Below are positions 1 to 31,463 of a stretch of 32,602 bases of DNA, one piece after another; position 1 is the first letter of the stretch; every line of letters begins with the position of its first letter. This DNA comes from a virus, in IMG/VR virus record IMGVR_UViG_3300031215_000004, one strand, 5' to 3'. The notes below the pieces were generated by a model that did not search any database, was not told where the DNA came from, and worked only from the letters and a program-made list of their open reading frames with translations. The position numbers and the translations under genes were made by a program.

Positions 1-113
1 TCGGCGCACGCACAGATAATTATGGTGTTGAGACTAAGGTCGTACAAACCAACCGCAAGGCACAACCAGCAAAGCAAGGCACACAGCTGCGCTTTACAAT
101 TAGAGAGGTATAA
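1..113 (+). CDS. 3' end (about the last 36 codons plus stop) of the YqaJ/lambda-Exo-like exonuclease. This is a duplicate copy of 32476-32588 created by the end overlap.
   Basis: Identical sequence to the end of ORF 31623..32588 (...NRKAQPAKQGTQLRFTIREV*). TAA at 111-113. Confidence 0.8.
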   Translation, partial: GARTDNYGVETKVVQTNRKAQPAKQGTQLRFTIREV

Positions 114-127
114 TCATGCTTACAAAC
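1..127. repeat. Terminal direct repeat / end overlap: bases 1-127 are identical to 32476-32602, so the contig closes into a circle of about 32,475 bp
   Basis: Both ends read tcggcgcacgcacagataattatggtgttgag...agagaggtataatcatgcttacaaac. The repeat covers the 3' end of the exonuclease CDS and the first 12 nt of the next small ORF. Confidence 0.9.
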
Positions 128-199
128 CCAAAAATTAAAGCAGTCACGTATTGGATTGCAATCATTTTACTTGTACTTGCAATACGTATGGCAATATAG
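116..199 (+). CDS. Small hydrophobic peptide, 27 aa (MLTNPKIKAVTYWIAIILLVLAIRMAI)
   Basis: ATG lies 2 nt after the exonuclease stop, with agagagg just upstream. One TM-like segment. Below the ORF-track size cutoff and translated by hand. Confidence 0.35.
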   Translation: MLTNPKIKAVTYWIAIILLVLAIRMAI

Positions 200-246
200 T
201 ACAAAGGTAATACAGAGGCACTGTACAACATTAAAAGGAGACTATC

Positions 247-1146
247 ATGGCACTACCCGTAAACGTGAAAAGACACGACAACAATCTTGAGAAATGCTTA
301 CCAAAATTTGCATTGGTATTAGAGGGCACAGGTTTAAGCCCTGCACGGCTCAAGCAGACTATCATAAGCGCCCTTATGGCGAATCCCTATCTTGCAAATT
401 CAGAGCCTACCAGCATCATGCAAGCTGCAATGTCAGCTGCTGTGCTTGGGCTTGAGTGTGACGGCGCAACAGGTCAGGGGTACATTGTACCCTATGGCGA
501 TAAAGCGCAATTCATCACTGGTTATAAGGGTTACATCACCCTTGCAAAAAATAACGGCTATATTGTCAGCGGTTGTGCTGTGCGTGAGAAAGATGATTTT
601 TCTTATCAGCAGGGCCTCAAGCCTGACCTGCACCACGTACCAGCGCAAGGCAGCGCGTCAGATAGGGGTGATATAATTTATACATACGCCACTGCTCTGC
701 ACTCCTCACTGCCGCCAATCTTTACGGTGGTGCACATTGAGCAGGTCAATGAGATTCGTGACGGCTCACAGGGTTATAAAGCCTTTATGTCAGGTAAGAT
801 TAAAAGCACACCTTGGGCCACCAATTATGAGAAAATGGCAATTAAGACTGCCATACGCTCATTGGCTGCACAATTACCCCTTAATGTTCAAAAGGCTCAC
901 GCATTAGAATCCGCGCATGAGGCTGGGCAACGCGCTCACATTACAGAGCAGGGTGATATTATTATTGAGAAACAAGATAATGAGGGTGAGGCCACAAAAG
1001 AGCAGCCTGACCTGACAGAAGAGCTGGGCCTTGACGGTGATATATGTGGCAAGTGCGCCGGGCGCGGTATAATTGAGACAGCTGACACTGACCCTAAAAC
1101 GGGTGAGATTGTTGATGGTAAAGGGCCATGCCCTGATTGCAGATAA
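247..1146 (+). CDS. recT: RecT-family single-strand annealing protein with a C-terminal CxxCxGxG...CxxC zinc-finger tail
   Basis: AAGGAG RBS upstream. RecT-like core (PYLANSEPTSIMQAAMSAAVLGLECDG...GQGYIVPYG...FITGYKGYITLA). Follows a YqaJ exonuclease as in RecET/Red-type pairs. Tail is CGKCAGRGIIE...GPCPDCR. Confidence 0.9.
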   Translation: MALPVNVKRHDNNLEKCLPKFALVLEGTGLSPARLKQTIISALMANPYLANSEPTSIMQAAMSAAVLGLECDGATGQGYIVPYGDKAQFITGYKGYITLAKNNGYIVSGCAVREKDDFSYQQGLKPDLHHVPAQGSASDRGDIIYTYATALHSSLPPIFTVVHIEQVNEIRDGSQGYKAFMSGKIKSTPWATNYEKMAIKTAIRSLAAQLPLNVQKAHALESAHEAGQRAHITEQGDIIIEKQDNEGEATKEQPDLTEELGLDGDICGKCAGRGIIETADTDPKTGEIVDGKGPCPDCR

Positions 1147-1177
1147 TTTTTAACCAACCCATGAAAGGGGTAAGACT

Positions 1178-1564
1178 ATGAATATTGACGAACTAACACT
1201 AGGACAAATTAAATCACTACAAAATATATTAGGTGGCAACACTTCAAAACCATCTGTTATATTTGATGATTATGTAGGTAAGTATGTTATTTGCAGAACA
1301 CGTAACGAAGGTATTAATGCAGGTAGAGTTGTTAAACTTGATGAAACAGGGGTAGTTTTAGAAGACGCTCGTAGACTTTATTATCACAAGCCACTAAATA
1401 AAAATGTAAGTTGGTATGAGGGTGTGGCTAAATATGGAATATCCAAAGACTCTAGAGTCGGGACACCAATAGAAAAGATTTTGGTTGAGGATTATTCTTT
1501 GACTGTGTGTACCAAAGAAGCTGAAAAATCAATAATTGGAGCAAAAGATAATGAGCAAAGTTAG
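1178..1564 (+). CDS. Hypothetical protein, 128 aa, encoded by a markedly AT-rich gene. Possible SH3/KOW-like small phage protein.
   Basis: aaagggg RBS upstream. Hand count gives about 29% GC in the first 120 nt, versus about 43% for the first 120 nt of recT. The motif GKYVICRTRNEGINAGRVV...ARRLYYHKP...SWYEGVAKYGIS resembles a widespread phage small-protein family whose identifier I cannot name with confidence. Confidence 0.7.
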   Translation: MNIDELTLGQIKSLQNILGGNTSKPSVIFDDYVGKYVICRTRNEGINAGRVVKLDETGVVLEDARRLYYHKPLNKNVSWYEGVAKYGISKDSRVGTPIEKILVEDYSLTVCTKEAEKSIIGAKDNEQS

Positions 1565-1787
1565 GGCTTTAAAATTTAACAGAGGCTATGGCGATGGCTA
1601 TGGCGATGGCGATGGCTATGGCTATGGCTATGGCGATGGCTCTGGCGATGGCGATGGCGATGGCTCTGGCTATGGCTATGGCTATGGCTCTGGCGATGGC
1701 TCTGGCTATGGCTATGGCTATGGCTCTGGCGATGGCTATGGCTCTGGCGATGGCTATGGCTCTGGCTATGGCGATGGCGATGGCTAA
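1551..1787 (+). CDS. Low-complexity repeat protein, 78 aa: basic leader MSKVRALKFNR followed by (Gly-[Tyr/Asp/Ser])x33-Gly
   Basis: ATG at 1551 has GGAG 9 nt upstream and overlaps the stop of the 1178..1564 gene by 14 nt (translational coupling). The ORF track starts it at an upstream TTG (1536). This frame is the only one with a credible start. Confidence 0.6.
   Translation: MSKVRALKFNRGYGDGYGDGDGYGYGYGDGSGDGDGDGSGYGYGYGSGDGSGYGYGYGSGDGYGSGDGYGSGYGDGDG
1584..1784 (+). repeat. Tandem hexanucleotide array (GGC-NNT)x33 plus GGC, built from only three unit types: GGCTAT, GGCGAT and GGCTCT
   Basis: Read directly. Every Gly is GGC, every Tyr TAT, every Asp GAT and every Ser TCT. Unit order is Y D Y D D Y Y Y D S D D D S Y Y Y S D S Y Y Y S D Y S D Y S Y D D. 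Confidence 0.9.
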
Positions 1788-1880
1788 ACTTTAACCTATG
1801 GGGGCGCATTTTTAGCGAAGTCTTTTAGACAACTACTTTCAAAAAAGATTGCGCCTCCACCAATTAACAAGGAGAATTAT

Positions 1881-2201
1881 ATGACAGAGAAAAAAGAATC
1901 CGCACCGGGCGCTGGGCACAATTCAGAGCCAATGGGTGTGAGTGCCATGGATGACAGCGGTGCTGTTGGTGGTGTTGCTGGTAAAAGGATTTTATCTTTT
2001 ATTGAGCGTATTGAGCGCTTGAGTGAAGAGAAAGCGGCCCTTGCAGAAGACATTAAAGAAGTTTATGCAGAGGCCAAAGGTACTGGTTTTGACGCGCCCA
2101 CGCTGCGCAAGATTGTGGCAGAGCGTAAGAAAGAGCCTGAAAAACGTAATGAGCAGCTTGAATTGTTTGAGCTGTATAAATCAGCAATAGGGATGCACTA
2201 A
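1881..2201 (+). CDS. gapR: GapR-like (DUF2312) nucleoid-associated DNA-binding protein
   Basis: AAGGAG RBS. ILSFIERIERLSEEKAALAEDIKEVYAEAKGTGFDAPTLRKIVAERKK...LYKSAIGM closely matches the GapR signature (IKEVYAEAKGxGFD...LYxSAIG). Confidence 0.88.
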   Translation: MTEKKESAPGAGHNSEPMGVSAMDDSGAVGGVAGKRILSFIERIERLSEEKAALAEDIKEVYAEAKGTGFDAPTLRKIVAERKKEPEKRNEQLELFELYKSAIGMH

Positions 2202-2203
2202 TC

Positions 2204-2371
2204 ATGGGGATAGACAACGGAAAATTTCATTGTGTTGTTGTAACAACAGTGACCACTGAAAAATTTAATTCTATTTACAATGCGGAAGTGCGTTTAAATA
2301 ATATTAAAGAAAACAACAAAGAAGGCGTTACAGCAGAGCTAGTGCCAATGAAAACAAGAAAGGTATTCTAA
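2204..2371 (+). CDS. Hypothetical protein, 55 aa (MGIDNGKFHCVVVTTVTTEKFNSIYNAEVRLNNIKENNKEGVTAELVPMKTRKVF)
   Basis: Hand-translated. Fills the gap between the gapR-like stop (2201) and the next start (2374). Below the ORF-track cutoff. Confidence 0.5.
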   Translation: MGIDNGKFHCVVVTTVTTEKFNSIYNAEVRLNNIKENNKEGVTAELVPMKTRKVF

Positions 2372-2373
2372 TT

Positions 2374-2736
2374 ATGACCGATGAAACTAACGAACAGAGG
2401 TTCGCAAATAAGATTTTAAAAATGACCAAAAACCACACGTCAAACAGTACGTTTCCTGTGCCCGTGGGTAAGTTGCAAATGCTTTGCTGTGCTGTGTTAG
2501 AGCTTAACCAGCCCAAGCCATTGCCACCACTCACTGACGTTGAGCAATCTGTGCTGTCTGCAATCAAGGCTGATATTGCGCAGGGCATTAAGCCAACCAT
2601 ACGCAGCGTGGCTGAAAGATTGCAGTATAAGCAACACAGCAGCGCACAAGGGGCAATTAAAAACCTTATCGGTCATGGTTACTTAAAACGTGAGGGCAGT
2701 CGCAAGCAATTAGTTGTGGTCAGCCTACGCAATTAA
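2374..2736 (+). CDS. Winged-helix protein with a LexA N-terminal-type DNA-binding domain and no peptidase/cleavage domain
   Basis: The C-terminal about 65 aa (LTDVEQSVLSAIKADIAQGIKPTIRSVAERLQYKQHSSAQGAIKNLIGHGYLKREG) align by eye with the LexA N-terminus (LTxRQxEVxxxIxxxxxxxGxPPTxxEIAxxLGxxSxxAAxxHLxALxxKGxI). Last gene of the + arm. Confidence 0.6.
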   Translation: MTDETNEQRFANKILKMTKNHTSNSTFPVPVGKLQMLCCAVLELNQPKPLPPLTDVEQSVLSAIKADIAQGIKPTIRSVAERLQYKQHSSAQGAIKNLIGHGYLKREGSRKQLVVVSLRN

Positions 2737-2843
2737 ATGTACTCTTAAACAGTCCCTCCTTTTGTGGACAGTGCCAGAGGGTGTGGCGTAAAACTAGCAA
2801 GGCCTAGCCACATGAAGCTTTGCCGCCCTCGTTACTGAATAAG

Positions 2844-2872
2844 AAAAAGCCCCCAATTAAGAGGGCTTTTTT
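2844..2872. terminator. Bidirectional intrinsic terminator between the convergent arms
   Basis: aaaaaGCCCCcaattaagaGGGCtttttt: a short GC stem flanked by an A-run and a T-run, so it reads as a terminator on both strands. Sits between the stop at 2736 (+) and the stop at 2896 (-). Confidence 0.6.
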
Positions 2873-2895
2873 ATTGATACACAGTATTACTCTAA

Positions 2896-3090
2896 TTATT
2901 TTTTAGCTTTATCACGCTCTTTACGTTTAGCGTTTACAATCTTTTGTTGCTTGTCAGCAGCAGCTTTTGCCTCTTTGGCAGTTTTCTTTGCAGCCGTATC
3001 TGTTCTTTTTTTGGCAGCTGCTGCGTTAGCCTGCAAGCCCCCGTTAATAGGGCTTATGCCGCCCACTGGTTTCACTTTCTTTTTAGCCAT
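2896..3090 (-). CDS. Small Lys/Ala-rich basic protein (histone H1-like composition), 64 aa
   Basis: AAGGAG lies 7 nt upstream of the ATG. By my count 20 K/R and 15 A out of 64 residues, with AKK/KAA-type repeats. Last gene of the - arm. Confidence 0.7.
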   Translation of the reverse strand: MAKKKVKPVGGISPINGGLQANAAAAKKRTDTAAKKTAKEAKAAADKQQKIVNAKRKERDKAKK

Positions 3091-3249
3091 GTCATTCTCC
3101 TTGGTTGTCTATTTGTTTCAGTGCGTCTAAATTTGCAACGCAACCCTGATAGGCAGAGTGCCCGCGTGTAATGTATTTTGCCACACCACTCTGCTTTTGT
3201 ACAGCTGTGGGTGTGGGCCAGTCTGGTGCTTTCTTGTACAGGCTTGCCC

Positions 3250-3783
3250 TTATTCATTAAGATTAGACCAGTCAGTTTCGTACCGTTGCTTGCGGCGCTC
3301 ACCCCAATCAATCTTATCATGGCTGCTCTGTACACTTTCTGTGCCTGCTGGCAGGGCCACACTTGGGGCGTGTTTAACGCTCTGTATTTCTTTCGCAATA
3401 TCAATAGCGCCCTGCTGCACTTTGTACTTACCAAAATCTTTAGGTAGCTTTGCAGCAAACCAAAACGTGACAACAGCACCAAGAATATACCAGCCCTCTT
3501 TTGGCATAGCGCCCAGAGCGCGCGCAGAAATTGCAAAGTTTACGGGGTCTGATATTGCAAAGTAAAAAATCCATATAGTGCCAAAGGTCATAATAGGGCG
3601 CGGTAATCTATTTAACCCATCAATAAGGGAATCCCACCACGTTTTACCATGCCCAAATTCAGCAGCAAATTGCTGGTAAACAGCAGAGCGTGCATCCGCT
3701 TGGTACGAATCCCGCTTTAATTTAGAGCCAAATATTGTTTTTATAAGGTCGCCCACCAATGGTATGCCAGCTAAAATACTCAT
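3250..3783 (-). CDS. Holin, GTA-type 3-TM holin family ('holin of 3TMs, for gene-transfer release')
   Basis: N-terminal MSILAGIPLVGDLIK..., the signature WWDSLIDGLNRLPRPIMTFG, and hydrophobic segments. ATGA overlap with the endolysin gene. Confidence 0.8.
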   Translation of the reverse strand: MSILAGIPLVGDLIKTIFGSKLKRDSYQADARSAVYQQFAAEFGHGKTWWDSLIDGLNRLPRPIMTFGTIWIFYFAISDPVNFAISARALGAMPKEGWYILGAVVTFWFAAKLPKDFGKYKVQQGAIDIAKEIQSVKHAPSVALPAGTESVQSSHDKIDWGERRKQRYETDWSNLNE

Positions 3784-4175
3784 GATTTAAAACTCCGTGG
3801 CAGTTGAAAATGTGGGTAATCTTTCCAATTCCAGTGACCGCCCCACTCAATAACAACCCCCTCCTCCATTGCCGCCCTAAACATTAGAGTGCCGTAAAGT
3901 TTAAAAGCTTCAATGTTATTCCAGTCCACAGGGTATGGTGCAAGGTCTATAGCATGGCCAAAACCACTTTGCTGTGGCCTGTGTAAGCTGTTTAATGTTT
4001 TAGATGCGCCACGTGCCACCAGCTTCTTCTGGTCTTCCAGCGTCCTTAAACCGCCAAATGGCACAACGGTTAAATCCATTACACCATACGACAGCGCACG
4101 TTCAGCAATCGCAATCAGTTTTGGATGTACACCGCGAATTCTTTTCTTTGATGTATTTCCAAATTTGTATCCCAT
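3780..4175 (-). CDS. Endolysin, peptidase M15 (VanY / L-alanyl-D-glutamate peptidase-like, zinc-dependent)
   Basis: GVHPKL...FGGLRTLEDQKKLVARGASKTLNSLHRPQQSGFGHAIDLAPYP...WGGHW...DYPHFQL matches the M15 H-D-H zinc-ligand pattern of T5-type endolysins. Confidence 0.9.
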   Translation of the reverse strand: MGYKFGNTSKKRIRGVHPKLIAIAERALSYGVMDLTVVPFGGLRTLEDQKKLVARGASKTLNSLHRPQQSGFGHAIDLAPYPVDWNNIEAFKLYGTLMFRAAMEEGVVIEWGGHWNWKDYPHFQLPRSFKS

Positions 4176-30214: not shown

Positions 30215-30755
30215 AGTCTGTTACCTCTTTTGTTAAATCTTTAAAAATTTGCAGTGCCTTTGCCTTATTGCCCTTTGGTTTCACAGAGGGGTATTCGTTC
30301 CAAAAAGTCTCAAAATACATTTCAGGTGTAAAAACAAATTCCCCTATATATATACTATTGTTATTTGTTACTTGGTCTTTGTTACTTGTATTCGCTATGC
30401 CACTCTTAGCTTTTGGCTTACCCACTGGCTTTACTGTTTTGTTCTTTTTCAATGCGTTAGACTTGTTCTTCTGTGACAGTTTCTGGTACTTCTCAAGCTC
30501 TCTTTGGACTCCATTGTGTAACCATACTGGGGTTTTAACGGTAAACTTTTTGATTAAAGTAGGCTTAACTTTTGACCACTGACGGGGTGAACACTTAGCC
30601 ATTCGTGCGAGTCGTTTATCATCATCGGGTAAGTTATTATCCGTCTGATACGCACATACAAGCAATGACATATAAGCACCAAACTCAAGGGCATCCATGT
30701 GATTAGTGCCGCCGATAAGCTTTTCAATGTTTAATTGTATGGTATGTATGTGCAT
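30024..30755 (-). CDS. DUF1376 (YdaU-like) replication-associated protein, 243 aa
   Basis: MDALEFGAYMSLLVCAYQTDNNLPDDDKRLARMAKCSPRQWSKVKPTLIKKF matches the DUF1376 N-domain pattern. The ATG at 30755 lies 1 nt after the HTH gene stop (the track's 30788 start overlaps it). Confidence 0.78.
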   Translation of the reverse strand: MHIHTIQLNIEKLIGGTNHMDALEFGAYMSLLVCAYQTDNNLPDDDKRLARMAKCSPRQWSKVKPTLIKKFTVKTPVWLHNGVQRELEKYQKLSQKNKSNALKKNKTVKPVGKPKAKSGIANTSNKDQVTNNNSIYIGEFVFTPEMYFETFWNEYPSVKPKGNKAKALQIFKDLTKEVTDYEQFDRATKEYRKFCDAGNYNQHATTWLNQRGWETEWADQVGRSGNGGNKSNAAKEAIMRGIS

Positions 30756-30756
30756 A

Positions 30757-30945
30757 TTAAACCCCAAGCTCTTTAAGCTTATCCTCAACCTTATGATAAT
30801 TTATTAAGGTTGGTACGGCAGTGCCTGTCACGTATGTTGATAAAGATGTTTCATGAACACCACAAAGACTTGCAAAACTTTTTTGAGAGTGACCTAGTTT
30901 TTTTATGCGCCAAGACCATGAGCCTATTGTTTTGTTTACTTCCAT
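30757..30945 (-). CDS. Cro/C1-type (XRE) helix-turn-helix regulator, 62 aa. First gene of the - arm.
   Basis: LGHSQKSFASLCGVHETSLSTYVTGTAVP is a canonical HTH_3 core. Immediately downstream of a consensus promoter. Confidence 0.85.
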   Translation of the reverse strand: MEVNKTIGSWSWRIKKLGHSQKSFASLCGVHETSLSTYVTGTAVPTLINYHKVEDKLKELGV

Positions 30946-30968
30946 TATTATTTACCCTTATTTTATTG

Positions 30969-30997
30969 TTGACAGTGCTAATTATATTCATTAAATT
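30969..30997 (+). promoter_or_regulatory. Rightward promoter: TTGACA-N17-TAAATT
   Basis: -35 at 30969-30974 and -10 at 30992-30997, about 45 nt upstream of the AGGAG/ATG of gene 31044. Confidence 0.55.
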
Positions 30998-31009
30998 AAA
31001 GATAGTCAA
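30981..31009 (-). promoter_or_regulatory. Leftward promoter: TTGACT-N17-TATAAT (on the - strand)
   Basis: -35 is the complement of 31004-31009 and -10 is the complement of 30981-30986. It interleaves with the rightward promoter and drives the HTH gene. Confidence 0.6.
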
Positions 31010-31043
31010 TAGGCACTGACACAAAAAACAAAAGGAGATTACT

Positions 31044-31463
31044 ATGACTGAAATAGATTTATTACCAAAAACCAGCAAAACTGTTGACTTCACACCAATT
31101 GAAATATCAGAAGACGCTGACCTTAATACTTTGCATGATATGCTTAATGGGGCACATGAGGCGCACGATAAGTATAAGAAAATGCTTGAGCACGTAAGGC
31201 AGGCTGACGCTATTACTGACGGTCTTACAGGCTGGACGTCTGATTATATGACAGAAGAATGTGAAACGCCTACTTATGAAGACAGCGCCCTTGACGTTAT
31301 CAGCGGTGTTAAAGATCACCTTATTGTACAGGTTGCACGATTCGCAAAACTTCAAGATGACCTTGAGGGTGAAATTTATGACGCTGTACAATGTGGAAAA
31401 GATGACGCTGAATACGGCACCTATGAAGAACAGGTCGCCTCAACTTATTGGGGGTCAAGATAA
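31044..31463 (+). CDS. Highly acidic early protein, 139 aa. First gene of the + arm.
   Basis: AGGAG RBS. About 31 D/E versus about 11 K/R by my count. No recognisable catalytic motif. Confidence 0.8.
   Translation: MTEIDLLPKTSKTVDFTPIEISEDADLNTLHDMLNGAHEAHDKYKKMLEHVRQADAITDGLTGWTSDYMTEECETPTYEDSALDVISGVKDHLIVQVARFAKLQDDLEGEIYDAVQCGKDDAEYGTYEEQVASTYWGSR

Follow-up and report, generated by a model that had tools for sequence, protein, structure and literature searches.

The virus record IMGVR_UViG_3300031215_000004 of IMG/VR, 32,602 nucleotides (nt) long and referred to in its full length as the window, is a phage-like genome (32.6 kb, 45.5% guanine plus cytosine, GC) that carries a small mobile cassette of two overlapping genes near its start. 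The first open reading frame (ORF1) encodes a protein of the family DUF6948 with a predicted Sm-like beta-barrel, and the second (ORF2) encodes a protein made almost entirely of glycine (Gly) alternating with a variable residue X. We show here, by comparison with their relatives, that ORF1 and ORF2 are both real, protein-coding genes. The pair recurs in well over 100 viral contigs (a lower bound) from unrelated phages. Phage isolates from Pectobacterium, Ralstonia, Vibrio and Iodobacter carry it, and so do regions resembling prophages in Bacteroidota, Firmicutes and Actinobacteria. It nevertheless has no name, no PHROG function and no solved relative. What is new is the conserved architecture; the mechanism proposed for it below is drawn by analogy. 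The features of the cassette are as follows.

1165-1170, plus strand: Shine-Dalgarno-like AAGGGG, 7 nt 5' of the ORF1 ATG, from reading of the sequence.
1178-1564, plus strand: ORF1, a 128-amino-acid (aa) DUF6948 protein with a predicted Sm/LSm-like beta-barrel, from Pfam PF22253, an AlphaFold2 (AF2) model and Foldseek.
1538-1541, plus strand: ORF2 ribosome-binding site GGAG, within the 3' end of ORF1 and 9 nt 5' of the ORF2 ATG, from reading of the sequence.
1551-1564, plus strand: 14-nt overlap of the ORF2 start (ATG at 1551) with the ORF1 stop (1562-1564), a translational coupling.
1551-1787, plus strand: ORF2, 78 aa, from translation, its frame backed by relatives.
1584-1786, plus strand: hexanucleotide array GGC-[T/G][A/C]-T, 33.8 copies, from Tandem Repeats Finder and codon counts.

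The association of the two genes can be seen when searching from either side. On the ORF1 side, a tblastn search of GenBank found relatives of about 30% identity in ten phage records, namely Iodobacter phiPLPE (two records of one genome), five Pectobacterium phages, Ralstonia NK-7, Vibrio IKEMa6-1 and a spring-water podophage. A (Gly-X)n ORF lies beside the DUF6948 gene in all five of the phage records inspected, downstream in four (overlapping in three) and upstream in one. Sixteen IMG/VR loci were also fetched with ORF1 and scored for a repeat ORF by regular expression, which found one in 14/16; degenerate Gly-Asp/Tyr arrays are present in L007 and, by DNA match, in L008. Included in the 14 are three loci with only divergent DUF6948-like relatives (L012, L019 and L021). 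In another three (L017, L018 and L020), (Ser-[Arg/Trp/Gly])n ORFs come after a divergent relative; of these, only L017 is counted among the 14, because its Ser-X array can also be read in a Gly-Ala frame. Of 21 loci compared, 20 have a repeat-frame ATG that overlaps the ORF1 stop, by 4-29 nt, and in the other, NK-7, the ATG comes after a gap of 4 nt.

The reverse search scanned IMG/VR for (GGCKMT)x8 without reference to ORF1 and gave at least 120 viral loci, in which DUF6948 was detected with a profile built from the ORF1 family. Among the 120 repeat loci listed, DUF6948 is directly upstream on the same strand in 64 and nearby in 6, while 24 meet the edge of the sequence and 26 have none; counting those listed loci that have upstream sequence, 64/96 carry it directly upstream. 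About 20 of the 26 listed loci without DUF6948 are plain (GS)n, and at least three (L058, L065 and L121) are mixed Gly-X arrays. Two of these, L058 and L065, have other small beta-rich proteins upstream of the array, one of which gives a weak DUF6948 score. The overlap of ORF2 with the ORF1 stop recurs in 54/58 independently found pairs, and one database protein (P0178) joins DUF6948 to a Gly-X-rich tail in a natural fusion. Bacterial genomes contain the pair as well: 14 of the 120 pattern matches listed are DUF6948-plus-repeat pairs, from Bacteroidales, Prevotella, Ruminococcus, Clostridia, Bacilli and Microbacteriaceae, and the others listed are mostly pure (GD)n or (GY)n. Used as a protein query, ORF2 returned 11 matches only, as composition filtering removes such sequences.

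The comparisons made here show that the pair is inherited and transferred together. An earlier reading of this stretch, made from its letters and translations (the sequence-only reading), had proposed that the two products probably act together and that co-occurrence of the two families be checked. Co-occurrence is borne out by the pairing in both search directions, the conserved overlap of start and stop and the P0178 fusion, and joint action is very probable, the pairing being kept across relatives of about 30% identity. The coupling that it described, a 14-nt overlap, was also found to be correct.

The annotation of the repeat gene in GenBank is often missing or mis-framed. For instance, the repeat gene of phiPLPE (L001, EU876853, 1173-1409) is unannotated, and in MW202478 (L003), where the repeat occupies 1459-1665, DUF6948 is annotated as a 200-aa coding sequence (1505-2077), the first part of which is the upstream repeat read in its Ala-Met frame. 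One homologue is labelled 'fibroin heavy chain-like'.

ORF2 consists of an 11-residue head, MSKVRALKFNR, followed by (Gly-[Tyr/Asp/Ser])33. The X positions are Tyr (14), Asp (12) and Ser (7), giving a net charge of about -8. A single codon is used for each amino acid of the array (GGC, TAT, GAT and TCT), and 34/34 Gly codons are GGC, a codon with a share of 37.5% elsewhere in the window and of 1/11 in ORF1; under the codon usage of the window, the joint probability of this uniformity is about 1e-25. With all 34 Gly codons being GGC, ORF2 is GC-rich, and at 55.3% has the highest GC of the window genes. No fold was predicted when ORF2 was run through AF2 as a single sequence (mean predicted local distance difference test score, pLDDT, 42), in line with the disordered (GX)33 partner described in the sequence-only reading. 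PHROGs and PADLOC contain no match to ORF2, and its matches in Pfam (TrAA12, 16.2 vs 30.9 bits) and NCBIfam are all below threshold. Similar composition is found across 58 arrays of 11-62 units each, in which X is Ser in 37%, Tyr in 31% and Asp in 26% of positions. Nearly all of the repeat partners are net acidic, and array length is hypervariable while composition is conserved, with a Tyr fraction that ranges from 0 to 0.67.

Care must be taken in calling such an array a gene. It is open in three of three forward frames, so its openness is no proof of translation. The frame whose ATG sits at the ORF1 stop is the Gly-X or Ser-X frame in each of 21 loci, and the ORF2 stop is mostly directly 3' of the array. 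About 25 loci have the array in frame between two conserved parts, a helix at the N-terminus (ME..I..FL.I) and a domain of about 150 aa at the C-terminus. The same pattern is also written with other codons in relatives: GGT/TAC/GAC/TCC in L012, GGT with mostly TAT, GAC and TCC in L022, mixed Gly codons in L016 and L024, and AGC/AGT mixed with AGA/AGG/CGG in the Ser-X family. The consistent frame and start, the stop after the array, the conserved domains in frame and the differing codons for one pattern together indicate that ORF2 is translated. A frameshift fusion of ORF1 and ORF2 was considered and ruled out, the gene order being inverted in MW202478. Scans with Rfam and for tRNAs found nothing, and sub-threshold miRNA-type matches on the repeat are due to chance.

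The array itself evolves in a distinctive way. Higher-order duplications inside the arrays of NK-7 and L010, together with whole-array codon switches among close relatives, point to concerted evolution, likely by slippage and unequal exchange under a protein-level Gly-X constraint. The comparisons made here show an array that expands, contracts and homogenises while the Gly-X pattern is kept. Within the population of this phage, the array is stable: independent assemblies give an identical 78-aa ORF2 bar one Ser-to-Tyr change, a single TCT-to-TAT codon in L271. Three independent contigs of the same phage (L270, L272 and L273) end inside the array, an indication that it breaks short-read assemblies. 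A diversity-generating mechanism can be ruled out, as there is no nearby reverse transcriptase or template repeat and the variation goes beyond A positions.

ORF1 matches the full Pfam model of DUF6948 (PF22253) over residues 34-119, with 50.7 bits against a cut-off of 27 (E = 2e-13). Its AF2 model, based on a 67-sequence alignment, has a mean pLDDT of 91.2 and runs from an N-terminal helix (residues 8-18, lower confidence) through a short helix, beta1-3, an inserted helix and beta4-5 to a C-terminal helix. In the Sm/LSm fold, a helix at the N-terminus precedes five antiparallel beta-strands in a strongly bent sheet, and the model shows this arrangement. When compared to the PDB using Foldseek, the best 50 matches all have the Sm/LSm fold (50/50) and are nearly all subunits of Sm/LSm rings; SmB, SmD3, archaeal SmAP1, Lsm rings and the LSm domain of EDC3 are among them. 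The probabilities reach 1.0 and the template modelling scores 0.76 (normalised to target length), at E-values of only 0.01-0.1. A profile search with ORF1 against PDB sequences gave nothing at E < 0.78, and PHROGs, NCBIfam and PADLOC gave no match. The best structural matches in BFVD are unannotated DUF6948 proteins. On the basis of the model, ORF1 can confidently be considered a small Sm-like beta-barrel protein. The sequence-only reading had suggested an SH3/KOW-like globular protein; the small beta-barrel was thereby anticipated, and the fold is instead Sm/LSm-like.

The family of ORF1 comprises 290 representatives at 50% clustering among 1.84 billion proteins, nearly all of them 110-140 aa long. 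Residues G34, R40, G45, G49, R65, R66 and G87 are each conserved in at least 90% of the family, and an ARRLW-type motif is present; among the partners of acidic repeats, the RR65-66 pair is at least 90% conserved. The N-terminal helix ahead of the barrel core, MNIDELTLGQIK in ORF1, lies in an extension that differs by lineage, being of the MNIDELTLGQIK type, the I-D-G-V-E-Y-V type, the MNIEKLKEAIE type or absent altogether.

The cassette sits in an early exo-recT-...-gapR operon of this uncultivated phage, with 31 nt separating recT from ORF1. Its flanks, both outside the cassette, and the spacer that follows ORF2 are given here.

247-1146, plus strand: recT, the upstream flank (Pfam RecT 1.6e-32; PHROG 148), with a C-terminal CxxC...CxxC tail.
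1788-1880, plus strand: spacer of 93 nt with a long-range hairpin at about 1799-1859, then the gapR Shine-Dalgarno AAGGAG at 1869-1874; outside the transferred block, no Rfam match.
1881-2201, plus strand: gapR, the downstream flank (Pfam GapR_DNA-bd 6.4e-28).

Several lines of evidence identify this block as mobile. DNA homology to the nearest relatives (L006 and L024-L027) covers exactly 1178-1787, from the ORF1 ATG to the ORF2 stop, and the flanks are unrelated; identity at the level of the ORF1 protein is 71-72%. L022 has an ORF1 protein 77% identical to that of the window and a DNA match confined to ORF1 (1271-1564), which is consistent with a recoded array. The nearest cassettes reside in backbones of 34-40% GC, where the adjacent genes are terminase/portal genes or a methylase gene and neither recT nor gapR is present. 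Conversely, a 32.7-kb viral contig (L028) with a RecT 61% identical to that of the window has the same recT, gapR and lexA-like backbone, and its recT-gapR slot (L028:971-1855) holds a 294-aa gene with a phosphoadenosine phosphosulfate (PAPS) reductase domain and a 46-aa ORF. Since L028 carries other genes there, the recT-gapR slot appears to be an exchange point for accessory cargo. The homology that ends at the cassette edges, the differing neighbours and the different gene in the L028 slot make 1178-1787 a mobile accessory cassette; as far as sequence comparison can tell, it is a self-contained, horizontally mobile two-gene accessory operon. Horizontal acquisition, as claimed in the sequence-only reading, is upheld by these data, including the comparison of synteny with a related phage that it had suggested.

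Base composition tells a similar story for the first gene. ORF1 has a GC of 33.9% overall and of 29.2% over its first 120 nt, as against 48.1% for recT and 47.0% for gapR, and its GC at third codon positions (20.2%) is the minimum among the 44 ORFs of the window. Only 0.39% of 387-nt sliding windows are equally GC-poor, which places ORF1 about 3.5 standard deviations under the mean of 45.6%, and one further region, near 30.7 kb, has a lower GC. The sequence-only reading had already remarked on a striking AT-richness (about 29% GC in the first 120 nt) that breaks with flanks of about 43-50% GC, here identified as recT and gapR by Pfam, and its figures and the expected departure in a sliding-window profile were all reproduced. 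Its picture of a low-GC two-gene cassette applies to ORF1 and fails for ORF2. The low GC of ORF1 looks donor-inherited, given the 34-40% GC backbones of the nearest relatives.

The neighbours of other copies were also surveyed. The 150 nearest genes to 61 pairs are mostly unannotated, and those with Pfam matches are early or DNA-metabolism genes: HTH_17 (4), RecT (2), Rad52 (2), Erf, AAA_24 (2), methylases (2) and dUTPase (2). These 150 neighbours include no third recurrent gene and no recurrent enzyme family.

Sister modules at L017:4001-4500, L020:2581-3143 and L018:3539-4605 encode proteins of 112-116 aa with a MNIDELTLGQIK head and the W/A/G core of DUF6948. Their (Ser-[Arg/Trp/Gly])n ORFs are joined by an ATGA overlap in L017 and L020, and L018 has three such ORFs, each with MKATQL at or near its start. 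L019 and L021 show a third variant, (Gly-[Asn/Tyr/Asp/Cys])n. In the divergent relatives paired with basic Ser-Arg/Trp repeats, the W79/A84/G87 core is kept and the RR motif is absent, a loss that hints at charge complementarity between the two proteins. In a longer form (e.g., L037, L080, L111, L141, L036 and L131), an ORF2 of 196-267 aa follows a short DUF6948 protein (93-102 aa) without N-terminal extension. This long ORF2 is made of the N-terminal helix, a Gly-X array and the conserved C-terminal domain of about 150 aa, which bears the motifs FAHG.TL.EA and WH..LTGSC..GR and has no sequence match in Pfam, PHROG or PDB.

Arrays of this type are found outside the pair as well. Mixed Gly-Tyr/Asp/Ser arrays are attached to other unannotated globular domains, which may be N- or C-terminal (P0272-P0276, P0281 and L175:3147-3803; e.g., in Brevundimonas staleyi), and the array may for this reason be a reusable module beyond its DUF6948 pairing. 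In addition, (Gly-Tyr)n tails encoded by the same GGCTAT hexamer are seen at the C-termini of bacterial proteins of about 800 aa (L149:4072-6513, L191:5222-7657 and L158:4501-6912). When the three were scanned, one contained Wzz, GNVR and AAA_31 and two contained P-loop AAA_31 only, an architecture consistent with Wzc-like tyrosine kinases; their tails are tyrosine clusters that occur naturally and resemble part of ORF2.

What might the two proteins do? They probably bind each other. The explanation that we favour overall, if only tentatively and by analogy, is a mobile operon of an Sm-like protein and a Gly-X repeat in which the repeat binds the Arg/aromatic face of the core. Together with the RRLW-type motif, R40, R65 and R66 would form a conserved face of the Sm-like core, and the repeat of ORF2, which is acidic, multivalent and rich in Tyr, would occupy it. 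Occupation could then gate the binding of RNA or single-stranded DNA (ssDNA) by the core, or could cross-link many cores into larger assemblies. All of this would take place early in infection, along with the products of recombination and DNA-binding genes. That the repeat on its core does in fact gate RNA/ssDNA binding, or link cores into a higher-order or condensate-like assembly, is a possibility suggested by analogy that we regard as doubtful.

Five points weigh against this explanation. ORF1 is no member of the Pfam LSM/Hfq families at E <= 0.1. Its net charge is about 0, with relatives spanning -6 to +12, which is atypical of a dedicated nucleic-acid binder. The idea of charge complementarity is based on three loci of the Ser-X family (family B) that were fetched via a shared N-terminal pattern, so that ascertainment bias is possible. 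In many relatives, the repeat is only a linker within a larger ORF2 and may hence serve as a spacer and not be the active element. Finally, the low pLDDT of ORF2 stems from a run on its sequence alone. Two kinds of variant, the sister modules with Ser-Arg/Trp repeats and the forms with a long ORF2, also argue against any model that rests on negative charge alone.

A broader and still more speculative formulation, to which we give only limited credence, would have DUF6948 and its dipeptide-repeat partner form a widespread, unrecognised two-component phage system, a 'split Sm protein', for multivalent ribonucleoprotein-like or condensate-like assembly or for nucleic-acid gating in early infection. 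The polymer of such a system would be a hypervariable, codon-homogenised chain of stickers and spacers, Gly-Tyr/Asp/Ser here and Ser-Arg/Trp or Gly-Asn/Tyr in sister families.

The closest analogy is with Hfq, whose acidic, disordered C-terminal tail binds basic residues of the Sm core and competes with nucleic acid (PMC5606850). Each of the two systems has a small core of the Sm fold and a low-complexity segment that is acidic and disordered, ORF1 keeping R40, R65 and R66 invariant or nearly so and ORF2 being rich in Asp and Tyr. ORF1 differs in having no LSM/Hfq match in Pfam, and its 'tail' is a separate, coupled gene that is fused only in P0178. Moreover, ORF2 is a strict Gly-X array with aromatics, and the pair is phage-borne, mobile and known here from sequence and models.

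Repeats are also found on other Sm proteins. The eukaryotic SmD1, SmD3, SmB and LSm4 end in Arg-Gly dipeptide repeats that are recognised by Tudor domains, themselves small beta-barrels. An Sm fold and Gly dipeptide repeats are shared with the phage pair, and SmB and SmD3 are among the best structural matches of ORF1; their repeats, however, are basic (RG), in cis and spliceosomal, and the fold is the only evolutionary link. The Sm proteins of archaeal Borgs have nucleotide-perfect, in-frame tandem repeats of amino acids that create disordered regions (PMC9879509). Like the pair, they are Sm proteins of mobile elements with nucleotide-perfect, fast-evolving repeats, but in these archaeal elements the repeats lie in cis at the N-terminus, and they differ in composition and have units of 4-17 aa.

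As an accessory cassette, the pair resembles the morons and other accessory cassettes in early operons of phages (the concept of Hendrix and Juhala). It is a discrete unit of deviant composition, present in one and absent from another of two related genomes and dispensable for the backbone, but it is embedded in an operon and no promoter or terminator was found for it. The cassette is moron-like in its evolution, as the sequence-only reading had called it, by its presence and absence at the slot and by its composition, and is not a strict moron with a promoter and terminator of its own. Peptide precursors were considered as well. A ribosomally synthesised and post-translationally modified peptide precursor with its modifying enzyme does not fit, as no recurrent enzyme occurs among the 150 neighbours and ORF1 is a 128-aa Sm-like barrel.

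Alternative explanations can be weighed against these data. Resemblance to the [G/S]Y[G/S] domains of FUS and the (GX)n of silk fibroin, in which Gly or Ser alternates with Tyr in multivalent, low-complexity chains of variable length, suggests a scaffold. Tyr stickers and Gly/Ser spacers would drive phase separation or the formation of beta-sheet fibres, ORF1 would nucleate or cap the assembly with no nucleic-acid role, and the result would be a compartment or a means to sequester factors. The Ser-, Tyr- and Asp-rich arrays of 11-62 units, hypervariable in length and conserved in composition, would suit this, as would the lack of a predicted fold in ORF2 and the 'fibroin heavy chain-like' label of one homologue. 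Aromatic residues are otherwise heavily under-represented in the low-complexity regions of prokaryotes and phages (PMC6821194), and the retention of Tyr in ORF2 therefore looks selected. Against a scaffold, ORF2 differs from both FUS and silk in being very Asp-rich, tiny and provided with a dedicated partner gene; abundant Asp should counter self-association unless neutralised, and in long-ORF2 relatives the repeat looks like a linker. We consider a scaffold of this kind unlikely.

The position of the cassette directly 3' of exo-recT, and of other copies near Erf, Bet, RecE, Rad52 or SSB genes, raises the possibility of an anti-defence or anti-nuclease decoy. A host-takeover or anti-defence role had been suggested in the sequence-only reading as frequent among such cassettes. 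The lambda gam and T7 gp5.9 products are acidic DNA mimics from early regions. An acidic Gly/Asp/Tyr polymer could likewise mimic nucleic acid and block a host DNA-binding defence or RecBCD, with ORF1 as its chaperone or adaptor, in a role equal to that of gam or abc beside phage recombinases. ORF2 is strongly acidic for this purpose (12 Asp in 78 aa, net charge about -8), and the cassette is exchangeable accessory cargo. The folded, DNA-like charge array is missing, though, at a pLDDT of 42: compared with the DNA-mimic class (Ocr, ArdA, Gam and gp5.9), ORF2 is acidic but has no AF2 fold and no family match, and the pair has no PADLOC or PHROG match. The basic S-[R/W] repeats of related modules would be incapable of DNA mimicry, the hosts span Proteobacteria, Bacteroidota, Firmicutes and Actinobacteria, which speaks against a lineage-specific target, and genes for single-strand annealing proteins make up merely 5/150 of the nearest neighbours. 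A decoy is decidedly unlikely on this evidence.

The uniform codons could alternatively indicate selection on RNA. The Sm-like ORF1 protein would act as an autoregulator like Hfq or TRAP by binding (GGCNNU)n on the mRNA that encodes it, and the Gly-X peptide would be incidental. This would account for invariant synonymous positions (34/34 GGC and a third base of X that is always T, P about 1e-25) and would agree with the Sm-like fold and with an array open in all three forward frames. It is made very improbable by the start at the ORF1 stop in the Gly-X/Ser-X frame in 21/21 loci and the stop usually directly 3' of the array, by the C-terminal domain conserved in frame at about 25 loci, by a hexamer that varies among close relatives (GGT...C in L022, AGC/NGG in the S-X family), and by the natural protein fusion P0178 and the lack of an Rfam match.

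The (GY)n C-terminal tails on proteins of about 800 aa with an architecture like that of bacterial tyrosine (BY) kinases offer a further option, in which Gly-Tyr units mimic the tyrosine clusters of Wzc-type BY-kinases, with Asp as a phospho-mimic, and titrate a kinase or phosphatase of the host with a role in the control of capsule synthesis or in the phosphorylation of DNA-metabolism proteins. This is mere resemblance and gives the Sm-like partner no role. Unlike the BY-kinase tyrosine-cluster class, ORF2 is a protein on its own, in which Asp and Ser are as abundant as Tyr; some arrays are almost without Tyr and relatives use Asn, Phe, His or Ser-Arg/Trp, so we hold a kinase decoy to be barely credible. 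Lastly, that ORF2 is a non-coding microsatellite or assembly artefact and ORF1 an unrelated orphan, as three contigs ending in the array and the common pure (GS)n, (GD)n and (GY)n microsatellites elsewhere might suggest, is contradicted by the agreement of independent assemblies and by a pair, frame and coupled start conserved across phyla, and its probability is close to nil.

A search of the accessible literature found nothing on DUF6948, these repeats or this pair. With no literature found, no PHROG/PADLOC match and only unannotated BFVD matches, we treat the pair as an undescribed phage module. A Tyr-rich low-complexity protein, rare in prokaryotes, together with an Sm-like partner provides a small, tractable system for the study of disordered multivalent proteins in infection. 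If the analogy with the Hfq tail is true, the core of an Sm protein and the tail that regulates it can be encoded by two separate, coupled genes that pass from phage to phage. If the 'split Sm protein' is true, it would be the first dedicated low-complexity/condensate module described for small tailed phages.

The rest of the window is arranged as minus-strand late genes and a short plus-strand early operon that runs across the window ends. Read in the circularly permuted contig, in which a YqaJ-like exonuclease gene precedes recT, the order of this operon is YqaJ-like exonuclease, RecT, ORF1, ORF2, GapR, a 55-aa ORF and a LexA-like winged-helix protein. A megablast of window positions 1-4000 against GenBank phages gave 0 matches, and the terminase has at most 40% identity to those of marine Pseudoalteromonas and Vibrio podophages. 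The C-terminal extension of RecT (1039-1143) contains two CxxC pairs (DICGKCAGRG...GPCPDCR) and looks like a zinc ribbon; the RecT of L028 shares this extension (DICGHCHGTG...QPCVHCGS).

The sequence-only reading had also attached importance to the spacer 3' of ORF2, as atypically long and bearing a long-range hairpin. The length of 93 nt is correct and is only the tenth-longest intergenic gap in the window. The hairpin, for its part, is present and marginal. Its stem pairs about 1799-1813 with 1841-1859 around a loop of about 27 nt, with a weak inner hairpin in the minimum-free-energy fold only, and the hairpin folds at -21 kcal/mol vs -13.6 +/- 2.95 in shuffles (z = -2.5), a value matched by 5/200 shuffles. 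It has no U-tract and was not detected by a terminator scan, which gave no terminator-like site 3' of ORF2. Homology to other cassettes stops at 1787, leaving the hairpin outside; as it is neither part of the transferred block nor terminator-like, the claim that the cassette has a 3' structure of its own is not supported. Alignment of the spacer and the recT end to the relative L028 gave no usable DNA homology. Promoter-like sites in 1-3300 number 7, with 5.2 +/- 2.5 expected in shuffles, and show no excess.

Other GC-poor spots were seen in the window. The 55-aa ORF 3' of gapR (2204-2371) has 33% GC, as does a 27-aa hydrophobic ORF 5' of recT (116-199). The GC minimum of the window, 31.8% at about 30677-31100, falls at the divergent junction of the minus-strand genes and the early operon, and may be regulatory or origin sequence or contain more small accessory genes. 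At the convergent junction of the early operon and the late genes (2737-2895), a GC-rich stem at about 2844-2872, AAAAAGCCCCCAATTAAGAGGGCTTTTTT, lies between A and T runs and is a likely candidate for a bidirectional terminator.

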